Positions 39,235 through 54,036 of a DNA stretch of 64,000 nt are shown one piece after another. Position numbers and translations under genes: made by a program. Location: assembly GCF_041248615.1 (NCBI RefSeq), contig NZ_CP158425.1; one strand, given 5' to 3'. Origin of the DNA: Escherichia coli (GTDB lineage Bacteria; Pseudomonadota; Gammaproteobacteria; Enterobacterales; Enterobacteriaceae). Each line of letters starts with the position of its first letter. Positions within the stretch are counted from its first letter, which is position 1. Below the pieces are notes generated by a model. That model was not told the origin of the DNA. It searched no databases and saw only the letters and a program-made list of their open reading frames with translations.

Positions 39235-40107
39235 ATGTCTAAAAATAAAGCTCGCAGTAAAGCCCTTCATCAAACCTTTAGTGAAATTATTCCAGAGATG
39301 GATAAGGCGCTAAACAAACAGCTCTTAGAAGTTCTGATGAAATATACAGAACGTGATAATGAACTGATTGTTATTTTGAATGAGGACGGCCCAAATATCA
39401 TTGAACTTAAGTCTCTTAAGCCTGTGTCTTTGTTGGCCGAAAAGCTTTCTGCTTATTCAAGCTATTATCATGTGGATGTTGTGGAGCTCGTGGTCAAGAA
39501 AATTGATTTCGAAGGAGCTTATAAGCTTCTTAAAGCTTCCCCAGATGTACCACTTTTTAAAAGCTTAACTGAACTGGATAAATATCTTGTTGAGGAGTTT
39601 GAAAAATACGGATTAAATTCATTTCTTGACGTGGATAATCTGGATTACTCACTTGAAAAAGCCAGTGAACTCAAAAATGAGCAGTTAATAAATTGGGTTT
39701 CGGACATCATTTGCAAACGTGAAAAATTAACTTTACGTAAGCGTTTTGATGTCGCAGTAAAGGCCCACTACGAAAATGTAGAAAAAATGTATGATACCAT
39801 TCGTCCGTTAATGAAAAAACTGGGTTTCCCAGAAGATCTCATGACGCACACCTTTAGTGAGTTAAGCGTTTTTGAAACTAAAGGATGGGACCATGCAATA
39901 AAATCGAAAATTGAGACTCTCGCTAAGCGTGAAACTCAATATTTAGATGATGCGGCTAAAGCAGAGAATCGACGTCTTGTAACAGAGAAGTTGGAGAACT
40001 CTTTAGCGATTGCACCAACTAAACCAACAAGAAATTGGTTACATATTGCCGGAATTGCCTGTTTGGTAGTCTGCACGTTCATGTATGTAACTAATAAATT
40101 TATTTAA
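39235..40107 (+). CDS. Hypothetical tail-anchored protein
   Basis: 290 aa, mostly charged/helical, with a single C-terminal TM (WLHIAGIACLVVCTFMYV). Confidence 0.4.
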   Translation: MSKNKARSKALHQTFSEIIPEMDKALNKQLLEVLMKYTERDNELIVILNEDGPNIIELKSLKPVSLLAEKLSAYSSYYHVDVVELVVKKIDFEGAYKLLKASPDVPLFKSLTELDKYLVEEFEKYGLNSFLDVDNLDYSLEKASELKNEQLINWVSDIICKREKLTLRKRFDVAVKAHYENVEKMYDTIRPLMKKLGFPEDLMTHTFSELSVFETKGWDHAIKSKIETLAKRETQYLDDAAKAENRRLVTEKLENSLAIAPTKPTRNWLHIAGIACLVVCTFMYVTNKFI

Positions 40108-40164
40108 TCCTGTTAAGGGGGAACCCTAACGGGGCTTCTCTTTGAACAAATCGAGGAGCGGAAA

Positions 40165-40542
40165 ATGTCATATCTTGAATATATCAATGAAGTAAAAGTG
40201 TCCGGGATAGTTATCAGTGCTGTGGAGAAAAAAATGACTGACCAGAGTATAGGTTTGTTAATAAAGCTCAAAAATAGGATGAAGACAGAAGTTGATGGTG
40301 AAATCACTGAGAGAGAATTTTCAGTTCAAATCAAGGTGTCGCCTGAAATGTATTCAACCTGTTTCACTGGTATAAATCAGGGTGATGAGTTGATGGTCTC
40401 CGGTTATATTGTTGTCGATACTATTATGATTGAAGGGAGAGAACATCCTCTTGACTACATGAGAGTGGTAGCAACAAGTAAGTTGGCTCACATACCTAAA
40501 CCTCTAAAAGGTTTTGGACAAAGTAGCTTTAATCAGATCTGA
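40165..40542 (+). CDS. Hypothetical small protein; possible OB-fold ssDNA-binding protein (weak)
   Basis: 125 aa; alternating beta-strand pattern reminiscent of SSB/PriB; no firm motif. Confidence 0.3.
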   Translation: MSYLEYINEVKVSGIVISAVEKKMTDQSIGLLIKLKNRMKTEVDGEITEREFSVQIKVSPEMYSTCFTGINQGDELMVSGYIVVDTIMIEGREHPLDYMRVVATSKLAHIPKPLKGFGQSSFNQI

Positions 40543-40562
40543 CATTAAACCCACCCTAAAGG

Positions 40563-40593
40563 GGAGAAATCCCTTCATGGGATTTCTCCTTTT
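40563..40593 (+). terminator. GC-clamped hairpin plus T-run 10 nt upstream of the next start codon
   Basis: GGAGAAATCCC ttcat GGGATTTCTCC then TTTT. Confidence 0.5.
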
Positions 40594-40602
40594 GGAGTCC
40601 CC

Positions 40603-41580
40603 ATGAAACAAAAATTTAGGGCTACTGCAATAAGTAGTAATCAACTTAGTTTTTTTTCTATACTCGATATAGATGAAGATGAAATAACGCAAATAGTTGA
40701 TTCACCCAAAGAGCATTTAAATGATGCTTACACGTCCGGATTAAACTTTAAATCAGAAGAAAGTAACATTTCTGAGATAAATTATGATTCTGAAAGGCGT
40801 GAAAATCACCTTTATGAAAAATCCAAATTACTTAAAAATCAGATTTTGCATACAATTAATTTTGCAGCAGAAACAGATTATCTATATACGGTTGAAGAAT
40901 ATAACCCAGATTTGGGTGGTCTGGTAATAGAATGGACCCCTGAGGATGTGTATGTTGTTTTTCTATCCGCTATGGAAGAGTCTTTGGAAATCATTAAAGA
41001 ACTAGTGTTGAGGAGAAAGTTATTCTTCAAAGATGACAATGGTAATATCACAGTGAATCCACTTTTAGAAGCTGAAACACGGTGGTATATGTCAAAATCA
41101 TTTGAATACACTTGTTTATCTCATGGACTTGATGCATGTGAATTTAGAGCGGAATTAAAATCATGGCTCTATTATCATTCGCATCGTTCGATTAGTGAAA
41201 ACACGAAATTAGCTGAATGCAGGAATGATGATGAAATCATTTTGCATGATTGCAATGACGATATGGGCTGGGACATCTTCTTTGATCAGGATTATTTAAT
41301 GTCAGAAAAAAAACTGGCTGTTAAATGGACTGACAGGGAAATTATGGATGTTTACATAAAAGCTTTTAAATCCACATTAGAGTTGTTTGACGAGCTTGTT
41401 TCATGTGATCTGTTAACTAAACGAAACGCTTTTGGCAAGTTAGAAATCAATCCAATATTCGAAAATCATTTTGAATGGATCATGTCTGAAGCTTTTGAAA
41501 TAGTGGGAAATCATCTTGGTTATAATGTGCCTCAAATCAGGAAACTGATGGCAACTATTTGCCAAATGAATCTCAAATAA
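40603..41580 (+). CDS. Hypothetical protein
   Basis: 325-aa ORF with SD-like GGAG upstream; no recognisable motif. Confidence 0.4.
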   Translation: MKQKFRATAISSNQLSFFSILDIDEDEITQIVDSPKEHLNDAYTSGLNFKSEESNISEINYDSERRENHLYEKSKLLKNQILHTINFAAETDYLYTVEEYNPDLGGLVIEWTPEDVYVVFLSAMEESLEIIKELVLRRKLFFKDDNGNITVNPLLEAETRWYMSKSFEYTCLSHGLDACEFRAELKSWLYYHSHRSISENTKLAECRNDDEIILHDCNDDMGWDIFFDQDYLMSEKKLAVKWTDREIMDVYIKAFKSTLELFDELVSCDLLTKRNAFGKLEINPIFENHFEWIMSEAFEIVGNHLGYNVPQIRKLMATICQMNLK

Positions 41581-41637
41581 AATGCCACTGGCAAACATCT
41601 GCCAGAGGGCGGTGTTTGCATTTTACCGGAGTTAAAA

Positions 41638-42696
41638 ATGTCTAATGCCGCTATGAAGTTAAATGAAACATCTTCTGATGCTTATGAAAAATTAGAAGCT
41701 CTTCTTTCCCCGGATGTTATAAAGTTAAAACATTATGTGGATAAAGGTGAGTATCTTTTAGTTCTAGCAAAGGACCTTTTTGGTATTCCAGAAATGGATC
41801 CAAAGATGGCTGTGCCTGTTTTCAAAACTAAAACCTCGTATCGAGCTCCGCTGAACAAAGACTACATACCAAATCCCCGAATACTTGAACAAGTGGTTAA
41901 ACTGCTTATCAGTCCGGATATAGATTTAAGTGTGTGTCTTAAAGGTGAGTCCGGTTCTGGCAAGACTGAAATGGTAATGTACATTAGCCACATGATGAAT
42001 TGGCCGCTGACAATTAAGCAGATCAACAGCAATATTCGAGTTGATGAGCTTGAAGGTGAGCGCAGTCTTAATGGTGGTAATACAGGTTTTGTACACAGCG
42101 ATTTGGTAACGGGATTTCGTAATGGTCACCTCATTCTTCTGGATGAAGTGGACAAAATCGATCCTGATACGGCAGCAAAACTTCACATGCCCATTGAACG
42201 TAAGCCCTGGTCACTCAGTGCTAATGGTGGTGAGGTTATAACTGCTAATGGCTACACGCGATTTATTGGTACTGCAAACACAAACATGAGTGGAGGCGCT
42301 CGCCGGTTCGTTTCTTCTCAACGTCAAGATGCAGCTTTTATAAAGCGGTTCTTGATAGTTGAAATGGAGAAGCCCGACAAAGTTGCTTTAACCAATGTGC
42401 TTACTAAACGATATAGCTCTTTGCCTTTTCAGGTCATTGAGAAGTTCGTAAGAGTAGCGATTGCAGTAAATGACTCTGGTACAGAAGACAGTGTGATGGA
42501 TATTCGTCAATTAGTAGCTTGGGTTGGCACGTCGATGACGTTAAAAACCTTTAGTCTTCTTGACACTTTCAAAATAGCTTTTGCTTCTGCTTTACCTTTA
42601 CATGTGGTCGATCTTGTTCTTCAAGCTATAGATCTTTCTCTTGGCGAAGACAAGGATAAATCGCTGGAGTATTTCACAGCAAAAAAGTCGAGTTAG
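41638..42696 (+). CDS. AAA+ ATPase of the MoxR/CobS-like class
   Basis: 352 aa; Walker A (GESGSGKT), Walker B (ILLDEVD), downstream arginine-rich segment; size typical of MoxR/CobS. Confidence 0.7.
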   Translation: MSNAAMKLNETSSDAYEKLEALLSPDVIKLKHYVDKGEYLLVLAKDLFGIPEMDPKMAVPVFKTKTSYRAPLNKDYIPNPRILEQVVKLLISPDIDLSVCLKGESGSGKTEMVMYISHMMNWPLTIKQINSNIRVDELEGERSLNGGNTGFVHSDLVTGFRNGHLILLDEVDKIDPDTAAKLHMPIERKPWSLSANGGEVITANGYTRFIGTANTNMSGGARRFVSSQRQDAAFIKRFLIVEMEKPDKVALTNVLTKRYSSLPFQVIEKFVRVAIAVNDSGTEDSVMDIRQLVAWVGTSMTLKTFSLLDTFKIAFASALPLHVVDLVLQAIDLSLGEDKDKSLEYFTAKKSS

Positions 42697-43031
42697 ATGG
42701 GATTTGTTATGAAACCTCTGATATTTGTATCTCAGAGTTATCCCATCTTGAATTTAGTGCGTTTTTAAGTACGGATGGTGCTGCTACCATTGCTATAGCA
42801 AAAAACGGAACTAATTTTACTGGACTTATGCAACTGAATAACGACTATTCTTTATTGTTTTATCATGATGGTAAAATAAATATGGAAGGTCTGATTAAAC
42901 AAATGGAATTAAAAGGTTATATGTATCAGGGAGCAATGGGCAATGATGATGTTGTTGCTGAGTTTCCCGGTATTCTTTTAATTTCACCAGAGAAGCTTTA
43001 ATATCAACCCTATCGGGAAATCTTTCCCGTT

Positions 43032-43054
43032 GGGGAGGGTTTCCCCTTTTTTTT
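43032..43054 (+). terminator. Hairpin plus T8 element upstream of the 43065 gene
   Basis: GGGGA ggg TTTCCCC then 8 T, preceded by the perfect palindrome CGGGAAA tc TTTCCCG (43014-43029). Confidence 0.45.
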
Positions 43055-43064
43055 GGAGAAACCC

Positions 43065-44192
43065 ATGACTTTAAATACTTCAATGCTTAACAAAGTATCT
43101 GCAAAACAAATCTCTGAGAATTTTGCAAAATCATATCCAGATTTACTGGAAGGTGCAGTTATAACAAAAATTGAAATAAGTGGCTGTCAAGGATCGCGTC
43201 GAACCGATAAAATCGATTTGTCTTATGATGGAGATGATATTACGGATCAAAAAAGCGTATCTAAAAGCGAAGTACGCTGGATTGACATAAAAGCCCTTAG
43301 CTTCAAAAGTACGATTACCAGCAGAATATCAACTCTTTGCTCACGCTTGTGCATCCGCTATAGCAATATGTGGATTTTACCAGTATCCAGTATGGAAGAG
43401 TTTCTGGAAGGGGCCCAAGAGATTGAACGAGAGTTTCAGGCAGGTATTCAAAACGTTGTAGACAATTATGAGATGCATATTGAGGCTGAAAAAAATAGAA
43501 GCCCAAGAATGTCTTCTTTGATTGATCAGTTGAAATTAACTAAAGATGATTTCATAAAATCCTTTAGATTTAATATTGCTCACTTTATTCCTTTTACGCC
43601 TATTAGCGTTGAAGGTGATGAAACCCAGGACTACTATCAGGAACAATTGATAACAGATCTGGCAGAAGAAGCAATGAAGGTTTATGAAAAAATTAGCAAA
43701 AATAACAATTTGCGCTCAAGTACTATTGACCGACTGAAGCAAATGCAAAATAAGATCATTAGCTTCATGTTTATACATAAAGAGGCGGCAGTACTTGCAG
43801 AAGCTATAAAACACATAATGAATAATTTACCTAAAGGTGCCATTTCTGAACCTCGCGACGTTGCGGTGTTACAGCAGTGGTTTTATTTCATGAGTGATGC
43901 TTCAATGTTAAAGCGTATTATTTCAGGAGAGCAAAAGGTTACTGACTGGTTGGAATCTATTACCAGATCATTTAATCAAAGCTCACAAACAGAACCGAAC
44001 GCGCTACAGAACACAGGTATTGAAGCTATTTTAGATTCAACAAATGTGTTCCAGGTTGAACCTGTCGTAGAGAACGATATAAATAACAGCACGTTTTCAA
44101 ACACTGATCCTGTAGCTGAACCTGAGAAATCAGTTTCGCAACAGGAAGACAATGTTGAAAATTGTTTTGATATCGAGCTCAAAGGCTGGTAA
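43065..44192 (+). CDS. Hypothetical protein (ORF-track start 43053 is TTG; ATG at 43065 preferred)
   Basis: About 375-aa ORF between the AAA+ and vWA genes; RBS GGAGAAA. Confidence 0.4.
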   Translation: MTLNTSMLNKVSAKQISENFAKSYPDLLEGAVITKIEISGCQGSRRTDKIDLSYDGDDITDQKSVSKSEVRWIDIKALSFKSTITSRISTLCSRLCIRYSNMWILPVSSMEEFLEGAQEIEREFQAGIQNVVDNYEMHIEAEKNRSPRMSSLIDQLKLTKDDFIKSFRFNIAHFIPFTPISVEGDETQDYYQEQLITDLAEEAMKVYEKISKNNNLRSSTIDRLKQMQNKIISFMFIHKEAAVLAEAIKHIMNNLPKGAISEPRDVAVLQQWFYFMSDASMLKRIISGEQKVTDWLESITRSFNQSSQTEPNALQNTGIEAILDSTNVFQVEPVVENDINNSTFSNTDPVAEPEKSVSQQEDNVENCFDIELKGW

Positions 44193-44219
44193 CTGTTTGC
44201 TTTATTAAAAACCCCAGAT

Positions 44220-44254
44220 GGGTACTTCACCATCTGGGTGAGTACCCCTTTTTT
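44220..44254 (+). terminator. Hairpin plus T-run with an overlapping alternative stem
   Basis: GGGTACT/AGTACCC stem followed by T6; interdigitated with CCAGATGG/CCATCTGG (44214-44221, 44230-44237). Confidence 0.5.
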
Positions 44255-44269
44255 ATAAAGAGGTATTCT

Positions 44270-46288
44270 ATGAAATTAGATCTTAAATCATCACCGCGCC
44301 ATATTAAGCGTTTACAGAATATAGCAAAAGTCATTAGCGGCTTAGGCGATGTAAGAGTTGTAATAGACGACAATACCAAAGGACCGTATTTTGATCCTGT
44401 AAATAAAGTTTGTGTTTTACCAAACGGCGATTATAGCGATGATGACTTTGTCAGTCTGATTGAAGGTTTTACCTGTCATGAAGCTGGTCATGGTCGCTAT
44501 ACCGACAGCGAGGTTTACAGTGACGCCTTTAATAGTGTTCTCAAGTCATCTGAAGGGTTTACACGCTTCGATGACGGAATGAATGCAGAGTTTGAGAGCC
44601 TCGCTGAGAAACGTAAAGCTTATAGCAGGGCAAAACGTCTTACCGGGCTTATAAATCTGTTCGATGATGTACAGATGGAAGAGAAGGTTGGTAACGATTA
44701 TCCGGATGCAAAGCGGCGGCTTGCAGCCACTTACGCACTGATGGTTAAAGCCGGAAGGATGACTCCTGATATATCTTCTCGTCCGGAAAATCCTGTCCTA
44801 TTTATTGAGTGGTATCTGCTTAACTCATTGCGAGTAAAAGTCCTTCAGCAGGCAGGTCACAAAGAAACACTCGATCCGTTTTTTGACTATGCCCAAAAGA
44901 TACTTTCTCCAGTAATTTCTGATGTTGAGGAAATTTTTCATGATGCTCTTGGTTGTGAAAATACTCAGGGCTGTGAATCCCTTGCTCGTAAGACCCTGGC
45001 TCTTTTAGAGAGACTGCGGGATGAGGCAAGGGAACAACAGCAGCAGACAGAGCAGGAGGAGCAGGAGGCATATGATGAATCCGAGACCGAGACCGATACC
45101 GATACCGATACCGAATCAGAAGATAAATCGCTTGAGTCGACTGATAGTCGTGAGGATGATTCTGAGGACGATAGTGAAGGTCAGGCAGATACTTCCGATA
45201 ACTCTGATCTTGCTCAAGAGGGATGTTCTGAGCCTTCAGAACTTGCTGAAGATAACGAGGGAAATAATGAACCCACCGGTGGCAATCCCACAGGTGATAA
45301 CATTATTGAAGACGATACTGATGCGATTAACCCTTCCGAGAGTGAATCAGATGAAGCCAGTTCGACTAACGTTGAAGATGAAAGTAACTTTTCATCGGCT
45401 CAATGGGAGATACTGGCAGATTTGTTGGATGCCTTTCTTGGCAGTGATGAGGATAGCGAAGATTATCACGATGCTTTGGCTAAAGAGATTGAAGGTATTG
45501 CATCAAAAGTATCCGATGACGTGAAAGCCGAATTCGGTGCTTCTGAATGGGATATCCCTGATCTCCTTATCGATTTGAATGTTTACAATGAGGCTTTGTC
45601 TCTGAGTCATTCAATCGGTAGCGACTTGTCTGTTTTACAGCAGGTTAAAATGCGTGGCCGAAACAAAACTCATGAGCGTGGAATTACCTTCGATGGAAAT
45701 CGATTAATTCTGTCACCAATGGGAGTTCGTGATGTCTTCAGAGCTCAAAGCGAATCTAAAAATAGAGGGCATGTTGGCCTCGTATTAGTTCGTGATATTT
45801 CAGCGTCAATGGCTAATGATGAAAGATATATTCATGCCATTAAGTCAGATCTTGCTTTATCGATGGCCGCTGAAAGTTTGTCAAAAATGCATGTCTCCAA
45901 TATAGTCTTTCCCTTCAAGGAAAGTGAATTTGAGATTATCAAAACGTTTGATCAAAGCGTTGAGGAATCTCTATCGAAATTCACTCTTGGATGTAAGGGT
46001 TATTATACCCCTACGGGATCGGCTTTAATGGCAGCTGTTGATCTGTTACTTGACAGCCAATTCGATAGGAAAATAATTTTTCTTATAACTGATGGTTATC
46101 CGAATAAATCGGAATTTACTATCGGCGAAGTTATGGAAAAGGCTAAATGTAATGGAATAGAAATCGTTGGTGTTGGTATTAAGACTGATGAAATAATTGG
46201 TTTTGAAACGGACACTTTCGTAACAGTTGATGATACTTCTTTATTGTCTATTGAAGTCAGTAAGCTAGTTCATCAAATACTTTCTTAA
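44270..46288 (+). CDS. vWA-domain protein with long acidic low-complexity linker (CobT-like partner of the AAA+ ATPase)
   Basis: 672 aa; C-terminal MIDAS-like DxSxS (VRDISASM) and later TDG motif (LITDGYPN); central Asp/Glu/Ser/Thr-rich region of about 130 aa. Confidence 0.65.
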   Translation: MKLDLKSSPRHIKRLQNIAKVISGLGDVRVVIDDNTKGPYFDPVNKVCVLPNGDYSDDDFVSLIEGFTCHEAGHGRYTDSEVYSDAFNSVLKSSEGFTRFDDGMNAEFESLAEKRKAYSRAKRLTGLINLFDDVQMEEKVGNDYPDAKRRLAATYALMVKAGRMTPDISSRPENPVLFIEWYLLNSLRVKVLQQAGHKETLDPFFDYAQKILSPVISDVEEIFHDALGCENTQGCESLARKTLALLERLRDEAREQQQQTEQEEQEAYDESETETDTDTDTESEDKSLESTDSREDDSEDDSEGQADTSDNSDLAQEGCSEPSELAEDNEGNNEPTGGNPTGDNIIEDDTDAINPSESESDEASSTNVEDESNFSSAQWEILADLLDAFLGSDEDSEDYHDALAKEIEGIASKVSDDVKAEFGASEWDIPDLLIDLNVYNEALSLSHSIGSDLSVLQQVKMRGRNKTHERGITFDGNRLILSPMGVRDVFRAQSESKNRGHVGLVLVRDISASMANDERYIHAIKSDLALSMAAESLSKMHVSNIVFPFKESEFEIIKTFDQSVEESLSKFTLGCKGYYTPTGSALMAAVDLLLDSQFDRKIIFLITDGYPNKSEFTIGEVMEKAKCNGIEIVGVGIKTDEIIGFETDTFVTVDDTSLLSIEVSKLVHQILS

Positions 46289-46303
46289 TAAACTCTACCC
46301 AAT

Positions 46304-46332
46304 CGGGGCAAAAGGCCCCGGTGGGTCTTTTT
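46304..46332 (+). terminator. Hairpin plus T-run after the vWA gene
   Basis: CGGGGC aaaag GCCCCG with outer ACCCA/TGGGT arms, then CTTTTT. Confidence 0.5.
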
Positions 46333-46359
46333 GCTCCATGAAGGAATAAGGAGCAAAAT

Positions 46360-46581
46360 ATGACTCAGATAAAAACTTACCGTGTAGAACATGAAAAAGT
46401 CGGTGCGATGCATAAAGTCCGTATTTTCGGACGTGTTGGTGAAGTTATAAGCAATGATAGCCCTCAGGAAAGAATCTTCCGCGAAGTCACTATAGCGGAG
46501 GGTAATAGCCAGCAGGCTGCGTTACTTGTAGATAACTACATACAGCGTCTTGAGAATAATGGCTTCACGACTGAAGCATAA
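46360..46581 (+). CDS. Small hypothetical protein
   Basis: 73 aa with good SD (AAGGAG) 7 nt upstream; bracketed by hairpins. Confidence 0.35.
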   Translation: MTQIKTYRVEHEKVGAMHKVRIFGRVGEVISNDSPQERIFREVTIAEGNSQQAALLVDNYIQRLENNGFTTEA

Positions 46582-46586
46582 ATGTT

Positions 46587-46610
46587 GAGGGCCCCCGGGC
46601 CCTCTTTCTT
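46587..46610 (+). terminator. Hairpin plus T-rich tail after the small gene
   Basis: GAGGGCCC cc GGGCCCTC then TTTCTT. Confidence 0.5.
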
Positions 46611-46694
46611 AAATTCTGCGTTGTGGGTTTCTCCCTGTCTTCTGCACCGCAGAAGGCATTGAGAAACTCACAATGCCAGATAAGAGAGATCATC

Positions 46695-47927
46695 ATGACT
46701 TATGCATCCCCGGCTCTTCGTCGTAATCCACAGGAAGTATCTGAACACTTTATTAAACTCGTTCATGCTCGAATTGCTGAAGTGTCTGGCTGGAAGTATA
46801 TATTCGAAAGAATACCTGCTTTCAAAGACGCTTGTGCAAAAGCCCCGAGCCAGGTTCCTTGCCCGTTTACTGGCGCAGGGAAATCGAAGTTTCGTTTCCG
46901 ACAAAAAGACCTTTATACCGGATGTGCGATCCATAATGACTTTCCGGTAAATGAGTTTTGCGACGGAATTGATGTTCTGGCGAAATATTATGAATTAAGT
47001 AAAACGCAGACTTGCAAAAAGATTCTCTCAGATTTTTTCGGGATGGATCTGCATGCTCCGTTAACTGACGCCGACATTGAAAATGAACGACGCTATAAAT
47101 CAGCAGTTCGTGCCACAGAAACTCTTGACCGAGAGGAAGTGGCAAAGCGAATGCGAAAACTTGATGTGATGTATCACTATACCGGTGAAATCAAGCCTAA
47201 TACTCCTGTTGCTTTGTACCTCCGTAATCGTGGGATCTCCCGCTTACTGAGTCACTTACCAAAGGATTTAGGCTTTAATAACCGGATCTACTATTGGGAT
47301 AAAGATAAGCAGAAATCGATTATCTATCCGGGAATGATTGCGATCTATCGTGACACCCGAGGTCGGCCTCTGACTATTCATAGAACATACGTAGACAAAA
47401 ATGGTGATAAGGCACCTGTAGAAAATCCAAAGCTGATGATGAAGCCTCCTGCCGATATGACAGGTGGCTCAATTCAGTTGTTTGACCCTCACTATGATTC
47501 AGGTAGTTCGACCTGGACACTGGGAGTGGCTGAAGGGATCGAGAACGCGCTTTCTGTTGTAGAAGCGACTTCAACACCATGCTGGGCAGCCAGCTCCGCA
47601 TGGTGCCTTGAAAACGTTACTGTTCCTGATTTTTTACTGCCTCCGCCGGATGTAAAATCTATAAACTTTTATATCTGGGCGGATAAGGATATTGCTAACT
47701 CACAAGGCACTCGTGCCGGTATTGAAGCTGCTCAGCGACTTCAAAGCCGCATGGTTGAGTTTTTGGCTAAACGATATCCCGCATCAAAGCTGACAATTGA
47801 AGTCTTCGAACCAGCACAAGATATTCCTGATGGGAAAAAGGGTATCGACTGGAACGATGTTCTCCAGTTAACAGGGCAGGATGGATTCCCGATTCACTGG
47901 GCTCCTGAATGTCTTAATCAGCTGTAA
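46695..47927 (+). CDS. DNA primase-like protein (zinc-binding N-terminus plus Toprim-like C-terminal domain); ORF track extends to 46623
   Basis: CxxGxGKxKFRF-type zinc-binding motif (CPFTGAGKSKFRFRQKD...CAIH), recalled as similar to P4-alpha/TraC-type primases; acidic Toprim-like segment (YIWADKD...GTRAGIEAAQRL); RBS AGAGAG before ATG 46695. Confidence 0.55.
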   Translation: MTYASPALRRNPQEVSEHFIKLVHARIAEVSGWKYIFERIPAFKDACAKAPSQVPCPFTGAGKSKFRFRQKDLYTGCAIHNDFPVNEFCDGIDVLAKYYELSKTQTCKKILSDFFGMDLHAPLTDADIENERRYKSAVRATETLDREEVAKRMRKLDVMYHYTGEIKPNTPVALYLRNRGISRLLSHLPKDLGFNNRIYYWDKDKQKSIIYPGMIAIYRDTRGRPLTIHRTYVDKNGDKAPVENPKLMMKPPADMTGGSIQLFDPHYDSGSSTWTLGVAEGIENALSVVEATSTPCWAASSAWCLENVTVPDFLLPPPDVKSINFYIWADKDIANSQGTRAGIEAAQRLQSRMVEFLAKRYPASKLTIEVFEPAQDIPDGKKGIDWNDVLQLTGQDGFPIHWAPECLNQL

Positions 47928-47931
47928 CAAC

Positions 47932-47965
47932 GATAACTCCCCCGCTTTTTGCGGGGGGGGTTATC
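47932..47965 (+). terminator. Long GC hairpin after the primase-like gene
   Basis: GATAACTCCCCCGC ttttt GCGGGGGGGGTTATC. Confidence 0.4.
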
Positions 47966-48005
47966 TTATCAATATTATATTTTAAAATTGTATTGATAAG
48001 ATAAC
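47960..48005. promoter_or_regulatory. Perfect 14-bp inverted repeat with 18-bp AT-rich spacer (operator-like)
   Basis: GTTATCTTATCAAT (47960-47973) and ATTGATAAGATAAC (47992-48005) are exact reverse complements. Confidence 0.4.
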
Positions 48006-48197
48006 CGCTTTCCTTCGTGATAATTACCTGCCTTTAAGGTCTTTTCACGGCTGAGATGCTTGCTCAGTTAAATAAATGTGCGGTACTACTGGCTATGGTC
48101 GGTTGTATGACATGGTTATTCCATAAACTATTAAAACCCATAACGGGAGTATTACCGTTATGGTGATGCTCGTCGTTTTACATCGGAGAGCATTTTA

Positions 48198-48719
48198 ATG
48201 AATTTTCAAATTAACGAAGTTTTTAATAAATTTGCTGCTGTTATAAAATCGCGCATCGTCAATGAACCATCGTCATGCTATTTGCTGCATGATAATGAGA
48301 TAGATATAACGATTTTGAAACATAGCATATTAGAAAATGACAGAAACCTGTTGTACGTAGTTCGTCCTTCAGGAACGTGTTTGTTGCGTTGTGACAAATA
48401 TTTCTATCCGAAATATTATCTTCGTTGCCGTGGAGATTATAAGTCATTCATATATGTCCATCTTGATCTACATAGTGGTGAAGCTAAAGAAATCACATGG
48501 GAGCAAGCAGACGATATGCTGTCTAGTCCAGGAAAACCCCCATTAAAAGGGAATCTTGGACGATTTGAGTATATAAAAGTTGTGGTTGAGGACCTTCGTA
48601 TTCGAGGTTACGCTGATTATCTTCCTGCGTATAATCTTGATGACCTTCGCCGTTTTGCCTTACAGGACGACCGCCCATCCCTTGTCAGATACATTGGCAA
48701 TGTCATGGCAACGGTCTGA
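48198..48719 (+). CDS. Hypothetical protein
   Basis: 173-aa ORF upstream of the paralogue array. Confidence 0.35.
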   Translation: MNFQINEVFNKFAAVIKSRIVNEPSSCYLLHDNEIDITILKHSILENDRNLLYVVRPSGTCLLRCDKYFYPKYYLRCRGDYKSFIYVHLDLHSGEAKEITWEQADDMLSSPGKPPLKGNLGRFEYIKVVVEDLRIRGYADYLPAYNLDDLRRFALQDDRPSLVRYIGNVMATV

Positions 48720-48797
48720 TTGATTGCTAATTGATTTACATATTTTCCCTGATGGCCAACCTGCATCAGGGAGGCCTCAATAACGAATGGAGGCTGT

Positions 48798-49676
48798 ATG
48801 AAGTTAGCTACGGACCTGGTAAAAGCTATTTTGATTAGAAATGGCGTTGAACCAGTAAATATAAGCGAATCATCTAAGTTATCTTTGAAACAACCACTGA
48901 CAGAACTTAAATTCAGTTTATATTTGCGAACTGAGCATTTATCTCACTTCCTACCCGGTTATGTTTATTCTATAAAAGAATGTCCACTGTCATATGACAT
49001 CGGGATCGAAATTCAGAAAATCTTCGAAAGTTTACATTTGTTAAACGAAGAATTTGAATCCCTCGGTTTTGTTTCTGTATGGATAGAAATGCATCAAAGC
49101 ATTTTTGAACAAAGTCGGTTTAAGAAAAGTAACTTTACTTTTCGGGAGGAAGAGGTCGAGCTTGCTAAAGGGCTTGTTTGTTCTCACAATTCACAAATAA
49201 GTAATGCGGCTTATTTCTGGCTTCAGCACTTTGAGGAGTTTATGATTTATGTTCGTAATAAGCTTATCGACCTCTTTCGAGAGGCCTATGACCTGATCCT
49301 TGGAATGCAGCAAGTATTTTTCATTCGGGAAAAGGAAGAGCTGTTGAAAACTATAAGTTATGGCGATGAGCTGTATGAGGTGAAATTCATGGCGGCTGAG
49401 CTTTACTCTATCGAACAGAACTTAAAGTGTTCTGAATCGATAAGTACAAAATCTCAAGCTTCGGCATATATTAACCGCATCCGTGAGTTTGTGCGTTCGG
49501 GGTGGAGGCAGGGCTATATAGTCTGCCATCATAAGCGAAGTAATCAAATTTCATCATTGTCATTACCGATGTACTTGAAAGATACGTCAGGCCGAAGTGC
49601 TCGAAAGCGAGTAAAACGTCTTATATCTTCTACAGTTTGTGGTAGAAATAAAGATTTAGGTCTTACAGATTTTTAA
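48798..49676 (+). CDS. Hypothetical ~300-aa protein, member 1 of the tandem paralogue family
   Basis: 292 aa; N-terminus (LVKAILIRNGVEPVNISES) shares a pattern with the four following genes. Confidence 0.45.
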   Translation: MKLATDLVKAILIRNGVEPVNISESSKLSLKQPLTELKFSLYLRTEHLSHFLPGYVYSIKECPLSYDIGIEIQKIFESLHLLNEEFESLGFVSVWIEMHQSIFEQSRFKKSNFTFREEEVELAKGLVCSHNSQISNAAYFWLQHFEEFMIYVRNKLIDLFREAYDLILGMQQVFFIREKEELLKTISYGDELYEVKFMAAELYSIEQNLKCSESISTKSQASAYINRIREFVRSGWRQGYIVCHHKRSNQISSLSLPMYLKDTSGRSARKRVKRLISSTVCGRNKDLGLTDF

Positions 49677-49694
49677 TTAAATTATACCCATGTG

Positions 49695-49730
49695 GGGATC
49701 ACACCCCATATGGGAGTGATCCCTTTTTTT
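49695..49730 (+). terminator. Hairpin plus T7 between paralogues 1 and 2
   Basis: GGGATCAC/GTGATCCC stem then 7 T; overlapping near-palindrome CCCATGTGGGG / CCCCATATGGG. Confidence 0.55.
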
Positions 49731-49746
49731 ATTGAGAGAGGATCAC

Positions 49747-50682
49747 ATGAAAATTATCGAAAAAATCATTAATGCCTTTTTGGTTGTTCAACATAAAAAA
49801 ATACAGGTTAAAAACATTACATTTTTAGACAATGGGCAGGGCATGTTCTCTGGTATGTCTTTTGATGCTGATGTTTCACTGGAGTTTATGTATGAATCAG
49901 CAAAAGCATATAGTTCTTGTTTCTTTGATATTCCCTTTCCAGGTTTTGAAGATGCAAATCTGGAGGAAATTACGAAATTTCAATTAGATGCTTTGAAGCA
50001 AAGAAAGAATCATTCTTTCTTTGTTAACCATTTGAGGTTTCCTATAGTTTTAAGGGAAGGGTGCAAAATCGAAAGAGGAGAAGTCTATTCAATTTCGAAT
50101 TGCACTTATAATAAAGAAAGATTGCAGTATCTTTTTTCTCAGGATATTTACGGTAAGTTGTATAATTCCTTAGAGAAAGAATTAAGCTCGTTTTTCTCAT
50201 TTATCAATGTTGAGGTGCACGAGTTGTTAAAAGATGCTGTATGCTTTGCATTAAAAATCCTGAATAAGATATCTTTGGATACACCTGAAAGACTTATTAA
50301 AGCTTTTAATTATCGTGACTGGTATTGTAGTTACGATGTTGAGCTTTTTAGGAAAGGCTTACCTGGTCATATTCTGGAAGAGCTCATTGCTCCAGATATC
50401 TTACTTTCAGACCTTAACGGTTGTAGAAAAATACTTAGAAATGCAAAACGATTTCTAAATGGACATACACAAACCAATTGTGTTTATATTAAATATGAAT
50501 GGTGGTTGGGGCCTGTTGATACCTCACACTCAGCTAAGTTGATGTCTGACAAAGAAATTAATAACCGAAGTGACTTGAAGAATTTTTCAAAGGTCTTTTT
50601 CAAAGAGTGTTTAAGTTCTGGTAAGTCGGAATATGAAAACCATCTTAGTGAAAAAGAACATGCGCTTCGCTATAATTATTAA
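49747..50682 (+). CDS. Hypothetical ~300-aa protein, paralogue family member 2 (ORF-track start 49732 is TTG; ATG 49747 preferred)
   Basis: N-terminus KIIEKIINAFLVV...ITFLDNG follows the family pattern. Confidence 0.45.
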   Translation: MKIIEKIINAFLVVQHKKIQVKNITFLDNGQGMFSGMSFDADVSLEFMYESAKAYSSCFFDIPFPGFEDANLEEITKFQLDALKQRKNHSFFVNHLRFPIVLREGCKIERGEVYSISNCTYNKERLQYLFSQDIYGKLYNSLEKELSSFFSFINVEVHELLKDAVCFALKILNKISLDTPERLIKAFNYRDWYCSYDVELFRKGLPGHILEELIAPDILLSDLNGCRKILRNAKRFLNGHTQTNCVYIKYEWWLGPVDTSHSAKLMSDKEINNRSDLKNFSKVFFKECLSSGKSEYENHLSEKEHALRYNY

Positions 50683-50750
50683 TTAAAATTATTTTCTCCC
50701 ATAGGGATTTCTCCCTATGGGAGAAATCCCTCTATTAAGAGGGTATTGAA

Positions 50751-51671
50751 ATGAATGCTATACAAAAGTTAGTTGAATCTATTCTTGTTAAAATGGGTTT
50801 TGTTGGCGCTGTAGTGGAAAATATATATTTGGATTCAAAACCATTTCGGCATATTCGATTTGTGGCTGATATTCCAGTAATATCTTTTCTACCTCATTTG
50901 GTGAAATATCTTAAGGGTGCAGACCATCTTTACAGTGGTAACGATGATTTGCATCCTCTTTTCATTTATTTTTCCGAAGCGGCTACATTAAAAGCAGGTC
51001 CTGTAAATCTCGCGAACTTTCGTTTTGAAGTTTCTATAGCTTCAACTCATTTACGACTGGTCTCAGAGCAGCCTGATTTGCTTTTCAAAGGATTTAACCG
51101 GGATAATCTAGAATACGTTTATTACCGCTCAGATTTGGCCTCTAAGGATCTTATACTAGGCCTTGTTGAACACGGTTCTCCTTTCATAAAACATCTACAT
51201 GGACTTATACAAAAGCGAATTTTAAACGAGTTCTCTCTGATTTTTTCTGTTCTTGAAAAGATTTTAGAAAGCGCGAAGCCACAAATTCTTGCTTGCTTCC
51301 ATAGTGTTGATTATGAAATGAACGTAAAAATAATAGCCGAAGCTATACCTGAAACTGTATCTAATCAGATAGTCACATCTGATTATATAGTTAATTCTAT
51401 ATCAGATGCGGACAAGTTTATAAATCATGTTCGTCGCTATTTAGCAGGCAGGGTAATGAAGAGGCGGATATACGCTGAATTAGATGTTTGTGAAGAAACA
51501 TCAAGTATTTCACTAGTGAACTTAGGATGCTTTACGTCTCCTCTGCTCGTTACGGAATATCAAATGTTTAAGCCACACTCTTCAGGGTTATATCGAAAAG
51601 CTATAAACAACTCCTTAAAACAGTTCAAACCAGAAATGCATGTACCTTCTGAAGAACTCTTTTATAATTAA
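50751..51671 (+). CDS. Hypothetical ~300-aa protein, paralogue family member 3
   Basis: 306 aa; N-terminus IQKLVESILVKMGFVGAVVENIYLD. Confidence 0.45.
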   Translation: MNAIQKLVESILVKMGFVGAVVENIYLDSKPFRHIRFVADIPVISFLPHLVKYLKGADHLYSGNDDLHPLFIYFSEAATLKAGPVNLANFRFEVSIASTHLRLVSEQPDLLFKGFNRDNLEYVYYRSDLASKDLILGLVEHGSPFIKHLHGLIQKRILNEFSLIFSVLEKILESAKPQILACFHSVDYEMNVKIIAEAIPETVSNQIVTSDYIVNSISDADKFINHVRRYLAGRVMKRRIYAELDVCEETSSISLVNLGCFTSPLLVTEYQMFKPHSSGLYRKAINNSLKQFKPEMHVPSEELFYN

Positions 51672-51737
51672 TCTAACCCATCCGGGAACCTGCTTCCCGG
51701 TGGGAAGCACTTCCTTTTTAGTCATGAGGTAGTGTAA

Positions 51738-52676
51738 ATGTTTAAAGAATCTGACCACGTGGAATTTGTTAGTGCCTTTCTTTATCAAAATTTAGGCCTT
51801 AATGTTTCCGCTGACGATATAACCGTTCAATTATCTGATACTTCGTTCGACAAAGTAACCTTTGATTACGATGTAGATATCGATAATTTAAATTGTATGT
51901 TGGATCTCTACATATCTGAGCTAATAAAGCACAACGCATCTTACTCCGATTCTATTCTTTTGAAACAAAAAATAATTTATTTTCTTGGAGTATTTAAGAA
52001 TTTCGGATTTTTTACGTTTGATATTCGCGGATATAGTAATACTTTAAGCCCAGTTAAAGTTATTGATATTGTTTCAATGATTATTAATGACTGTGAAGAG
52101 TTATCTAAAGCTAATTCTTCTACTGATGCTATAAGAAATCTTTATCTCGATAAAATGAAGGTGGATGGGAAAGTGTTAGTTGCGAAATTTGCACTTAAAC
52201 AGTTTTTTCATTCCGACTTTGGTGACTTTATCTCATTTGTCGAGAAAAGAATTACAGATTGTCTTAATGAAACTTTAAGGATTATCAAAGCTGTTGAACA
52301 TGGCTTTGTACGTGTAGGGCAGCATAAGATTAATCGCCGTATTAATGATGACTTAAAGTTATGCATTGATTTCAATACTGATGATTATCCGGCAAATATG
52401 CCAGATATATATATTAAGTTTAACGATACATTTGATGGGAACGGGGCGTTATATTGTGACAATGATGCCCTCATATCCCTCTATACCGATGTTGCTTCAA
52501 TTATCAATGTGCCGGTGATGATGGAAGTAAGATTGATCAATAAAAGAGGGCGTGTTGTCTGTGATTCTTCGCATTCAACTTACGTATCTCTCGAAAGTAA
52601 TGACCGATACAGAGTAACTGATCGCACATTACTAATAACTGAAGCTTTTGACGATTTTCGTAACGCGTCTCAATGA
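51738..52676 (+). CDS. Hypothetical ~300-aa protein, paralogue family member 4
   Basis: Clearly paralogous to member 5 (VDGKVLVAKFALKQFFHSDFGDFISFVEKRIT versus VDGQVMIARFALQQFWDTHFIGLITFVSESIT); same upstream context GAGGTAGTGTA(A/T)ATG. Confidence 0.5.
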   Translation: MFKESDHVEFVSAFLYQNLGLNVSADDITVQLSDTSFDKVTFDYDVDIDNLNCMLDLYISELIKHNASYSDSILLKQKIIYFLGVFKNFGFFTFDIRGYSNTLSPVKVIDIVSMIINDCEELSKANSSTDAIRNLYLDKMKVDGKVLVAKFALKQFFHSDFGDFISFVEKRITDCLNETLRIIKAVEHGFVRVGQHKINRRINDDLKLCIDFNTDDYPANMPDIYIKFNDTFDGNGALYCDNDALISLYTDVASIINVPVMMEVRLINKRGRVVCDSSHSTYVSLESNDRYRVTDRTLLITEAFDDFRNASQ

Positions 52677-52847
52677 TCCTTTTGCTTCAGTCCAAAAAAG
52701 TAACTTTGGTTGGCTGAAGACACTTGTCTATGACAATGTAAAATCTGTCGCTGGCATCTTCTTTTAGCTTAACCAAATTTTTATCTAACCCAGTGGGGAA
52801 GTCGCTTCCCTTCTGGGGCACTTCCTCTCAAATTCGAGGTAGTGTAT

Positions 52848-53804
52848 ATGACACATTCATCTGATGATAAAAACTATGTCCGAGCAGTTCTGAGTTATCT
52901 TGGCATAGATTTTGATGAGGCGGATATAGTATTAAGTGTTTGCCATTGTCAAAGTGACGAGCTTTCTTTTACCTGTAATATCAAAGCTATTGAACTCAAG
53001 AATGCTGTTGATTTATATGTCGATAGTATCTCTGAGAATGAAATAGAAGCTTTAAACAGAGAATCTTTAAAATCGCGACTCTGTTACTTTCTTGAGGTGT
53101 TTGACGCAGTCTCTGGTCAGTACCTTGAAATTTCAGGAAAACACTTTGCAACTAGTCGTTTTGAATATGATGATGTTTGTAGTGAAGTTCTTAGCATGTC
53201 TAATGATGTTTCTCAGTCGAAAGGTTATGACCGGGATGAATATAACAGACTGATGCAGGTTGATGGTCAGGTTATGATTGCCCGTTTTGCTTTGCAACAG
53301 TTCTGGGATACTCATTTTATTGGACTAATAACATTTGTATCTGAGTCTATAACATCGAGCCTCTATAAAGCTTATGAAACTTTTAGTGATATTAGTTTGG
53401 CTTGCTATAAACTGAGTGAATATTCTTATTCACGCTCTATCAACAGTGAATTGACCCTTAATATTTCACTTAAAGAAAATGACTTCTGTGAGGACCTATC
53501 TGATTGCTATATGGAAGATGAGGCTTTACCTTCTGGTAGGGTAATTTCTCGACGCAACAATGACTCCATAATAAGTATTTATGAGAGCTATGCTGCGGCT
53601 TCTTATATTCCGATGATTGCATCTTTGGAAGTCGTTGATGAATACGGCGAAGTGGTTACTGACCTCTGCCATACCGTTTATGTTTCAGAGTTAACCGGTG
53701 GGCGGATTAAAATCCACGACCGTAATGACTTAGTATCTGAAGTTTTCGATAACCTAAGAAATTTAAATCTTGCAGTTGGAGATTCAGTTTCACAAGCTGC
53801 TTGA
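52848..53804 (+). CDS. Hypothetical ~300-aa protein, paralogue family member 5 (ORF-track start 52842 is GTG)
   Basis: Paralogue of 51738-52676 along the whole length. Confidence 0.5.
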   Translation: MTHSSDDKNYVRAVLSYLGIDFDEADIVLSVCHCQSDELSFTCNIKAIELKNAVDLYVDSISENEIEALNRESLKSRLCYFLEVFDAVSGQYLEISGKHFATSRFEYDDVCSEVLSMSNDVSQSKGYDRDEYNRLMQVDGQVMIARFALQQFWDTHFIGLITFVSESITSSLYKAYETFSDISLACYKLSEYSYSRSINSELTLNISLKENDFCEDLSDCYMEDEALPSGRVISRRNNDSIISIYESYAAASYIPMIASLEVVDEYGEVVTDLCHTVYVSELTGGRIKIHDRNDLVSEVFDNLRNLNLAVGDSVSQAA

Positions 53805-53843
53805 TTCTTTCCCTGATTTTGATTTTTTCTCACATACTCTTAT

Positions 53844-53867
53844 GGCACGGTTTCCGTGCCTTTTTTT
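53844..53867 (+). terminator. Intrinsic terminator closing the paralogue operon
   Basis: GGCACGG ttt CCGTGCC then 7 T. Confidence 0.65.
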
Positions 53868-54036
53868 GCCTCGCTTACAAGCGTCTACTCCTCTTCTACC
53901 TATCCCACCTTACATCACCACTTAAAATCTATCTTTCTAATTCCATTATCCTTTTCGTAGCCTCTAATGCTCTGGTATGAACATACTCTTTAAACTCAAA
54001 AAAGTGCTATTAACGAAAAAAAATCCCTAAAGAGAT

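Follow-up and report, generated by a model that had tools for sequence, protein, structure and literature searches.

Five tandem genes of an IncHI2 plasmid as members of one diverged family, with alternative RNA pairings predicted ahead of their start codons

Do five adjacent unannotated genes of similar size on a conjugative plasmid belong together, and if so, what might they do there? This question is raised by positions 48798-53804 of a 64,000-nucleotide stretch of Escherichia coli DNA (contig NZ_CP158425.1; hereafter the window), where five neighbouring open reading frames (ORFs) of 292 to 318 codons lie on the + strand. We refer to them in order as m1 to m5 and to the ORF at 48198-48719 as p0 (Table 1). 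RefSeq labels each of m1 to m5 'hypothetical protein', as it does the genes around them. A 6-kb region containing them is 100% identical to positions 48000-54000 of the E. coli plasmid p14408_M1 (NZ_LT599829.1; IncHI2A, MOBH, MPF_F, 238 kb), of which the window makes up the initial 64 kb. Multidrug-resistance genes, mcr-1 and carbapenemase genes among them, have major vehicles in the IncHI plasmids. A preliminary description of the window had presented the five consecutive same-strand genes, which are indeed there, as a tandem array of diversified paralogues of a kind typical of conflict-related functions. For two genes the start was chosen from the position of the Shine-Dalgarno (SD) sequence and the RefSeq annotation: ATG 49747 was favoured over TTG 49732 for m2, and ATG 52848 over GTG 52842 for m5.

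Among the proteins of the window, BLASTP detected one significant pair within the array. The m4 and m5 proteins are paralogous along their length, as had been proposed (27% identity over 309 residues, E = 4e-36); m2-m3, in second place, fell short of significance (E = 0.006), and no further pair within the window reached significance, in keeping with the statement that the copies are otherwise strongly diverged. Similarity beyond m4 and m5, on which the preliminary description had made its proposal depend, was thus missing at the level of BLASTP; it was recovered by profile comparison. Profiles were built from the orthologous arrays of five lineages; the IncHI1 (L002) and IncHI1B (L003) arrays were taken from PLSDB, and three much more distant IncHI-like lineages (L006, L010/L009 and L011/L012) came from public assemblies. 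An all-against-all BLASTP of these arrays gave three groups, A (m1 type), B (m2 and m3 types, here B2 and B3, joined at 1e-5 to 1e-9) and C (m4 and m5 types). Profile-profile comparison then connected the groups, with values of 98.1% (E 9e-14) for B2-B3, 96.3% (E 1.6e-9) for A-B3 and 90.8% (E 1.2e-6) for A-C. The direct B-C match reached only 30% (E 5e-4), meaning that A is the bridge between the subfamilies. When C was aligned with A and B together by hhalign, we obtained 94.2% and E 1.1e-7, the alignment running colinearly through 231 columns from residue 8 onwards. In a control experiment in which one alignment of each pair was reversed, the best E was 0.013 and the best score 25 (compare with real scores of 52-99). 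The N-terminal pattern reported to be common to the five proteins is real: every profile alignment begins at residues 1-8, where an hh.A.L-type helix leads into a beta hairpin. Judged by these comparisons, m1 to m5 are a single ancient paralogous superfamily, in which m1 represents subfamily A, m2 and m3 subfamily B, and m4 and m5 subfamily C. The p0 protein, put forward for inclusion in the alignment, is not a member and was rejected as a sixth component of the array (hhalign probability below 1% against each of A, B and C), and the other ~300-residue neighbours (39235, 40603, 57378, 60510 and the DUF3150 protein) were likewise ruled out by profile comparison.

We located the similarity by cutting the profiles into three parts, an N domain, a stalk and a C-terminal domain, that were compared separately. 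The N-terminal alpha/beta domain (approximately residues 1-100) matched between A and B3 with E 5e-7, and between A and C weakly yet colinearly. The central helical stalk, which bears the aromatic motif FW..F..F..YV, matched between A and C with E 7e-7. Over the C-terminal ~110 residues no between-subfamily similarity appeared in this split-profile comparison, and a duplication of an N half into a C half found no support in it either. The only columns invariant over A and B were M1, L12 and F145, and the invariant positions in C were mostly hydrophobic, glycine or structural. No polar residue was conserved family-wide among the aligned members, and the alignments thus suggest that m1 to m5 are probably non-catalytic binding proteins. 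Since inspection of the array sequences by eye revealed no evident signal peptide or membrane segment, they are also probably cytoplasmic. Charge differs between the types: m1 to m3 are near neutral, and a DNA-mimic-like acidity is confined to the m5 type, whose net charge is -21 to -31 over ~300 residues in nearly every lineage (the exception is an extra m5-clade copy in L010, which is neutral). The m5 type is also the sole type found in every array, including the two-gene array of L006. We tentatively favour a reading in which the m1 to m5 proteins work at the plasmid-host interface as a set of binders, with partners that differ from one to the next. The common scaffold of N domain and stalk would display a diversified C-terminal domain, through which each paralogue would recognise a different partner, of the host or of the plasmid.

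Structure prediction was compared for two of the five proteins, by order of elements. The AlphaFold2 models of m3 (predicted local distance difference test score, pLDDT, 83; predicted template modelling score, pTM, 0.80) and m4 (pLDDT 75, pTM 0.70) have the common order H-EE-H-H-E, helical stalk, EE, mixed alpha/beta and terminal helix. Searched against the AlphaFold database (AFDB), the m4 model found ~300-residue uncharacterised proteins of Brenneria, Dickeya, Photorhabdus, Serratia, Pectobacterium and Salmonella (10-13% identity, E 1e-9 to 1e-5, template modelling score 0.55-0.6), which on these models are probably candidate A/B-type members. The best structural neighbours of the m3 model were TULIP/BPI-type folds, and the matches were weak. 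If such a fold were adopted, the proteins could be carriers of lipids or hydrophobic ligands whose site of action would be the envelope, in H-pilus mating or under membrane stress. We consider this very unlikely, as the m4 model had no such fold matches, no array member matched the Pfam TULIP families (BPI, SMP, JHBP, OrfX/P47) and, as mentioned above, neither a signal peptide nor a membrane segment was seen.

Searches against known families agreed with the earlier remark that no fold or function could be assigned from the sequence: no family was matched, and the fold matches were weak. With m1 to m5 and p0, plus 20 orthologues, NCBIfam, PADLOC and PHROGs gave nothing significant, and for PADLOC not one family reached E <=1 with any of the six window proteins. 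There was no Pfam match at E <=0.001 among 31 family members, p0 had no Pfam match, and PDB sequence searches with two family profiles gave no match. Known anti-defence families (ArdA, ArdB/KlcA, ArdC, PsiB, Ocr-like) had no significant NCBIfam, PHROG or Pfam match to the array, and we found no description of the array genes or of the hairpins presented below in the literature. Two family-C proteins matched phrog_10163, a 303-residue family of unknown function, in register: the N-terminus of m4 (51738-52676; residues 9-64 to 6-61, E 0.005) and the C-terminus of the protein encoded at 6813-7718 of L010 (residues 226-298 to 216-286, E 0.055). This family may be a remote phage relative, which we take as a lead only. 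A tblastn search with m4 and an m5-type protein against 50,697 phage records returned nothing.

We then looked at how the array is distributed and how it evolves. The 6-kb region matches 1188 PLSDB plasmids, 1112 of them at >=99% identity, with 1109 covering >=80% of the query, and a tblastn search with m4 matched 1405 PLSDB plasmids. In IncHI1, IncHI1B and IncHI2 the genes are 1:1 orthologues in the same order, of near-identical length and 45-64% identical. Between IncHI2 and IncHI1B the array proteins are 45-61% identical and the neighbouring proteins 57-80%, meaning that the array diverges faster. The ratio of non-synonymous to synonymous substitution rates (dN/dS), calculated between IncHI1 and IncHI1B, was 0.14-0.25 for the array members (compare 0.06-0.18 for the genes next downstream). 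Purifying selection acts on every copy that is retained. Copy number is 2, 4 or 5 across the lineages. Orthologues of m1 are present in IncHI1, IncHI1B, L011 and L006, and the m2 type is missing from L011 and L006. In a neighbour-joining tree of family C the m4 and m5 clades had bootstrap values of 98% and 100%, and the two C copies of L010 were sisters within the m5 clade (82%), which points to an independent duplication. On this phylogenetic evidence the array evolves by birth and death, with occasional duplication and loss. With its turnover in copy number, one independent duplication and faster divergence, it deserves the description of a true tandem array of diversified paralogues on a mobile element. 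Natural plasmids can do without single members: an IS21-family element (ISSso4-like istA/istB) interrupts m2 in pMCR_915_C1 (L018, 2248-5828) and in NZ_OQ078087.1, both otherwise complete mcr-1 IncHI2 plasmids, and m1 is truncated by IS26 in pSE81-1706.

Beyond these plasmids little was recovered. A word-indexed search of 5.8 billion proteins gave 18 and 25 clusters, all of close IncHI-like relatives, and the C profile, run with HMMER against 1.84 billion representatives, gave 41 hits, again IncHI-like relatives. The one outlier, a 2078-residue Gram-positive surface protein with nine repeats (E 5e-7), was judged to be repeat or composition noise. No family relatives were found in 100,044 species genomes, and the divergent lineages L006 and L010 had no DNA match in PLSDB.

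Looking at the gaps between the genes, we found a recurrent module. Most gaps between 40108 and 52850, and the matching gaps of L003, L006, L010 and L011, contain two adjacent hairpins, H1 and H2. The first has the form CCCnnnGGG..loop..CCCnnnGGG and lies after the upstream stop codon. In H2 a segment b, just past H1, is paired with a segment c that corresponds to the SD region of the next gene, and an element a, inside H1, is complementary to b and could compete with c. Across 36 modules from five lineages, H2 (b:c) covers the SD region. RNAalifold on a MAFFT alignment of the 36 modules yielded no consensus structure, owing to register shifts, and a matched-versus-mismatched duplex-energy test was used in its place. 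The a:b duplex averaged -10.5 kcal/mol when both elements came from their own junction (compare with -6.6 for swapped junctions), and none of 5000 permutations was as good. By this computational evidence, a:b and b:c exclude each other, and the SD region is hidden in only one of these pairings. In the IncHI1B orthologue of the m1-m2 junction the elements read GGGGATTAC (a), GTAATCCC (b) and GAGGATTAC (c); comparison with the IncHI2 sequences (Table 1) indicates that all three elements changed together. The identical context noted earlier upstream of m4 and m5 (GAGGTAGTGTA(A/T)ATG) does stand ahead of both genes, where it forms element c of the two junction modules concerned (m3-m4 and m4-m5). 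No Rfam family matches the module.

A stringent pattern made for the module had eight hits in the window, seven of which are true start codons, between 43065 and 52848. It had no hit on the Tra2 genes or downstream of m5, and elsewhere on the plasmid its hits fell off annotated starts. The m2-m3 and m3-m4 junctions fail this pattern; at m2-m3, where a and b are complementary by eye, the duplex computed with the arm boundaries of the script reached only -5.7 kcal/mol. Each module would have two states, either H1 and H2 with the SD region hidden, or a:b, often terminator-like, with the SD region free. The modules would in this way tie the translation of each gene to events in the preceding one, or gate read-through, and would thereby fix the order and ratio of expression. 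Short upstream ORFs within the junction modules were considered and dropped, as by eye they are not conserved in the other lineages.

Evidence for expression comes from a proteomic study of IncHI1 plasmids (PMC5390554), whose Table S3 core-genome sheet gives the genes in plasmid order. We mapped rows 25-29 of this table to m5 through m1 by gene order, counting from the recombinase and Tus-like genes and anchoring on the 276-nt and 270-nt ORFs. The mapped rows are all core genes, each found by mass spectrometry in 2-4 of 4 IncHI1 plasmids at 24°C. If this gene-order mapping is right, the m1 to m5 proteins are apparently present in ordinary plasmid-bearing cultures. These observations bear on the idea that the genes are relics, that is duplicates drifting without function, an idea suggested by the extreme divergence between copies and by the loss of single ones. 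The low dN/dS in every member, the intact ORFs of conserved length in five lineages and the conserved, co-varying putative translation-control modules ahead of each gene all contradict it. Taken together, the selection and expression data effectively refute this reading, to which we give almost no credit.

The array makes up the last five genes of a co-directional block of ~15 genes that starts after trhI, the end of the upstream Tra2 transfer genes. The order of the block is three unknown ORFs, an AAA_5 ATPase, a small ORF, DUF3150, VWA, a 73-residue ORF, DUF7146-Toprim, p0 and m1 to m5. The ATPase is CobS/MoxR-like (TIGR01650, E 1.3e-8, far below the cutoff of that model). With 35-38% GC, the array region is the most AT-rich part of the neighbourhood, and it is followed by genes for small and membrane proteins, a Tus-like protein, a tyrosine recombinase and Hha. 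Orthologues of p0 lie directly upstream of the array in L003, L006, L010 and L011. The p0 protein and the product of 39235-40107 (290 residues, the first gene past trhI) share a domain (hhalign 85%, E 6e-6, 120 columns) and so constitute a second, separate pair of paralogues in the block.

This organisation raises the possibility, about which we are doubtful, that m1 to m5 are subunits of one hetero-oligomeric assembly held together through the N domain and stalk, perhaps matured by the MoxR-like AAA+ ATPase and the VWA protein, with the modules setting order or stoichiometry. The fixed gene order and 1:1 orthology across deep divergence, the purifying selection on all members, an operon shared with the AAA_5 and VWA genes and the serial modules hiding each SD region are all as expected of such a complex, for which the conserved N domain and stalk could be the interface. 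However, the content of the array varies (A+C; B2+B3+C+C; A+B3+C+C; all five) and loss of m1 or m2 is tolerated in natural plasmids, both of which speak against the idea.

We also considered that the five genes are strictly effectors of anti-defence or host interference, each paralogue neutralising a different host defence or stress factor and the acidic m5 type behaving like a DNA mimic. A diversified tandem family on a conjugative plasmid, its faster divergence than the neighbours, its turnover in copy number and the acidity of nearly all m5-type copies fit this idea, and the m4 model weakly matches part of a 708-residue DUF1738 (ArdC N-domain) protein in AFDB (E 4e-4). Against it, none of the PADLOC, NCBIfam, Pfam or PHROG anti-defence families is matched, the charge density of ArdA and Ocr is about twice that of the acidic type of the array, whole-gene dN/dS carries no sign of positive selection, the array is almost invariant among the 1112 IncHI2 plasmids, and the apparent detection in ordinary donor cultures, by gene-order mapping, means that expression would not be limited to the early post-transfer period. 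Location is a further argument. The annotation of NZ_LT599829.1 shows no relaxase gene at 1-120 kb or 190-238 kb, so that the gene presumably lies at 120-190 kb; >=66 kb on one side of the array and ~95 kb round the circle on the other are without one. This would put the array (48-54 kb) at a long distance from oriT, and on this annotation we rejected a place for it in a classic leading region. We therefore find this explanation somewhat unlikely, and the broader statement that such arrays are typical of conflict-related functions is not supported here: a fast arms race is hard to square with the stability of the syntenic orthologues, the purifying selection and the location. The turnover, the faster divergence and the acidic m5 keep the conflict idea alive. 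At 190-238 kb of NZ_LT599829.1 (L016) there is a long same-strand run of small ORFs with several orphan DNA methyltransferases, DUF4942 and HNH, which resembles a typical anti-restriction or leading-type island more than the array region does.

Our tentative preference remains a set of binding proteins with different partners. Such a set would serve establishment or maintenance of the plasmid across hosts by binding host factors or interfering with them, perhaps in concert with the MoxR-like ATPase and the VWA protein encoded alongside, and would have no part in housekeeping chemistry. Several points weigh against it. What we call a divergent C-terminal domain may only reflect divergence past detection by profiles whose effective number of sequences (Neff) is ~2.4. 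Fixed order and 1:1 orthology would equally fit subunits of one complex, and the position outside the leading region and the lack of a match to known anti-defence proteins do not help either. As far as the searches reach, the family is restricted to IncHI-like plasmids and has no informative context elsewhere. Finally, H1 begins at anything from 1 to >20 nt past the stop codon, so that a terminating ribosome would often fall short of it, which weakens simple translational coupling. A bolder proposal, which we regard as unlikely, is that 39-54 kb is an IncHI 'relay operon' in which three-element RNA switches would free the ribosome-binding sites in turn; the paralogues would be a new TULIP-like family that, with the MoxR-like ATPase, DUF3150, VWA and Toprim proteins, would form a plasmid-encoded machine acting on host factors and helping to explain establishment and host range.

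Altogether, these data place five unannotated core genes in one family with a conserved scaffold, a variable C-terminal part and selection on its members, and the junction modules join the array and the AAA+/VWA/Toprim set in one regulatory unit. Working as proposed, the module would be an unusually regular case of serial post-transcriptional control in a long operon, and it would also be a useful marker of this backbone unit. The coordinates of the features are collected in Table 1.

Table 1. Features of the array region in the window and gene content of the divergent arrays.
Feature	Coordinates	Strand	Description
Upstream co-directional genes	39235-47927	+	annotation and Pfam labels; junctions mostly with module
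Toprim-p0 gap	47937-48135	+	strong terminator-like hairpin 47937-47959, AT-rich palindrome, conserved non-coding stretch
p0	48198-48719	+	173-residue companion gene ahead of the array in every lineage; non-paralogue of m1 to m5
Junction p0-m1	48745-48800	+	H1, then H2 paired with the m1 SD region
m1	48798-49676	+	subfamily A, 292 residues, charge near neutral
Junction m1-m2	49686-49749	+	a GGGGATCAC, b GTGATCCC then T7, c GAGGATCAC (SD region)
m2	49747-50682	+	subfamily B, B2 type, 311 residues
Junction m2-m3	50692-50753	+	a GGGATTTC / b GAAATCCC complementary by eye, c AGAGGG
m3	50751-51671	+	subfamily B, B3 type, 306 residues
Junction m3-m4	51676-51740	+	c GAGGTAGTGT; weaker, a:b only -6.5 kcal/mol
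m4	51738-52676	+	subfamily C, m4 clade, 312 residues, mildly acidic (net -14)
Junction m4-m5	52788-52850	+	b GCACTTCC, c GAGGTAGTGT, both as in the m3-m4 junction
m5	52848-53804	+	subfamily C, m5 clade, 318 residues, strongly acidic (net -30, pI 4.3)
Terminator-like hairpin and T-run	53844-53860	+	after m5; junction modules end here
Array content, L006			p0-A-C
Array content, L010			p0-B2-B3-C-C
Array content, L011			p0-A-B3-C-C

Other elements of the block and its surroundings were seen along the way. Just upstream of the DUF7146-Toprim gene (46695), in the place of the usual module, lies a near-perfect 55-nt hairpin of ~-35 kcal/mol (46620-46674; GTTGTGGGTTTCTC...GAGAAACTCACAAT), present in all five lineages with some positions changed; possible roles are those of a regulatory RNA or of a signal for single-strand priming. 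The long AT-rich palindrome at 47960-48010 (GGTTATCTTATCAATATTATA...TATTGATAAGATAACC) is replaced in other lineages by a palindrome of different sequence at the same site, and may thus be an operator. A ~95-nt non-coding stretch upstream of p0 (48047-48135) is conserved in all five lineages, better than the neighbouring proteins; stem-loops are predicted in it, and the folded stretch, including the p0 junction module, has 7 pairs that stay paired despite changes on both sides. A transcription unit running from p0 to m5 may have its leader or promoter here. We dropped a 38-codon hydrophobic ORF of the p0 leader, as by eye it is not conserved in other lineages, L006 among them. Near the end of the window starts a composite transposon, ISApl1-mcr-1.1-ISApl1 (62827-66865 of NZ_LT599829.1), the known colistin-resistance unit.

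How does this locus compare with known systems? OrfX1-OrfX3 and P47 of the Clostridium botulinum neurotoxin clusters are adjacent TULIP-like paralogues, non-catalytic alpha/beta proteins whose role is unknown. The array likewise consists of adjacent paralogues, and its m3 model is nearest, weakly, to TULIP/BPI-type folds. Anti-defence genes (ArdA, KlcA/ArdB, ArdC, PsiB and SSB) have been described in the leading regions of plasmids (Samuel et al. 2024, PMC11541004), in a paper that makes no mention of IncHI. Like these genes, the array is a poorly annotated same-strand run on conjugative plasmids, putatively at the plasmid-host interface, with a very acidic m5; unlike them, it has no relaxase gene annotated nearby, and it shows no homology to them. 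The array proteins also differ from typical DNA mimics in being larger, at ~300 residues, and three-part. With the MoxR(AAA_5)-VWA chaperone-like modules and CobS/CobT-like pairs, the array has in common that it shares its block and its junction modules with a CobS-like ATPase and a VWA gene, a co-location from which a functional link may be drawn; unlike the proteins of MoxR-VWA modules, the array proteins have no AAA, VWA or known partner domains. The junction modules resemble SD-sequestering hairpins and attenuators, in that H2 pairs with the SD region, an upstream element can compete for the same strand and the alternative helix is often followed by a T-run. They depart from known attenuators and coupling hairpins in that a single long operon repeats the same three-element design at most of its junctions, about ten in a row, with co-variation at the level of the individual junction across five lineages.

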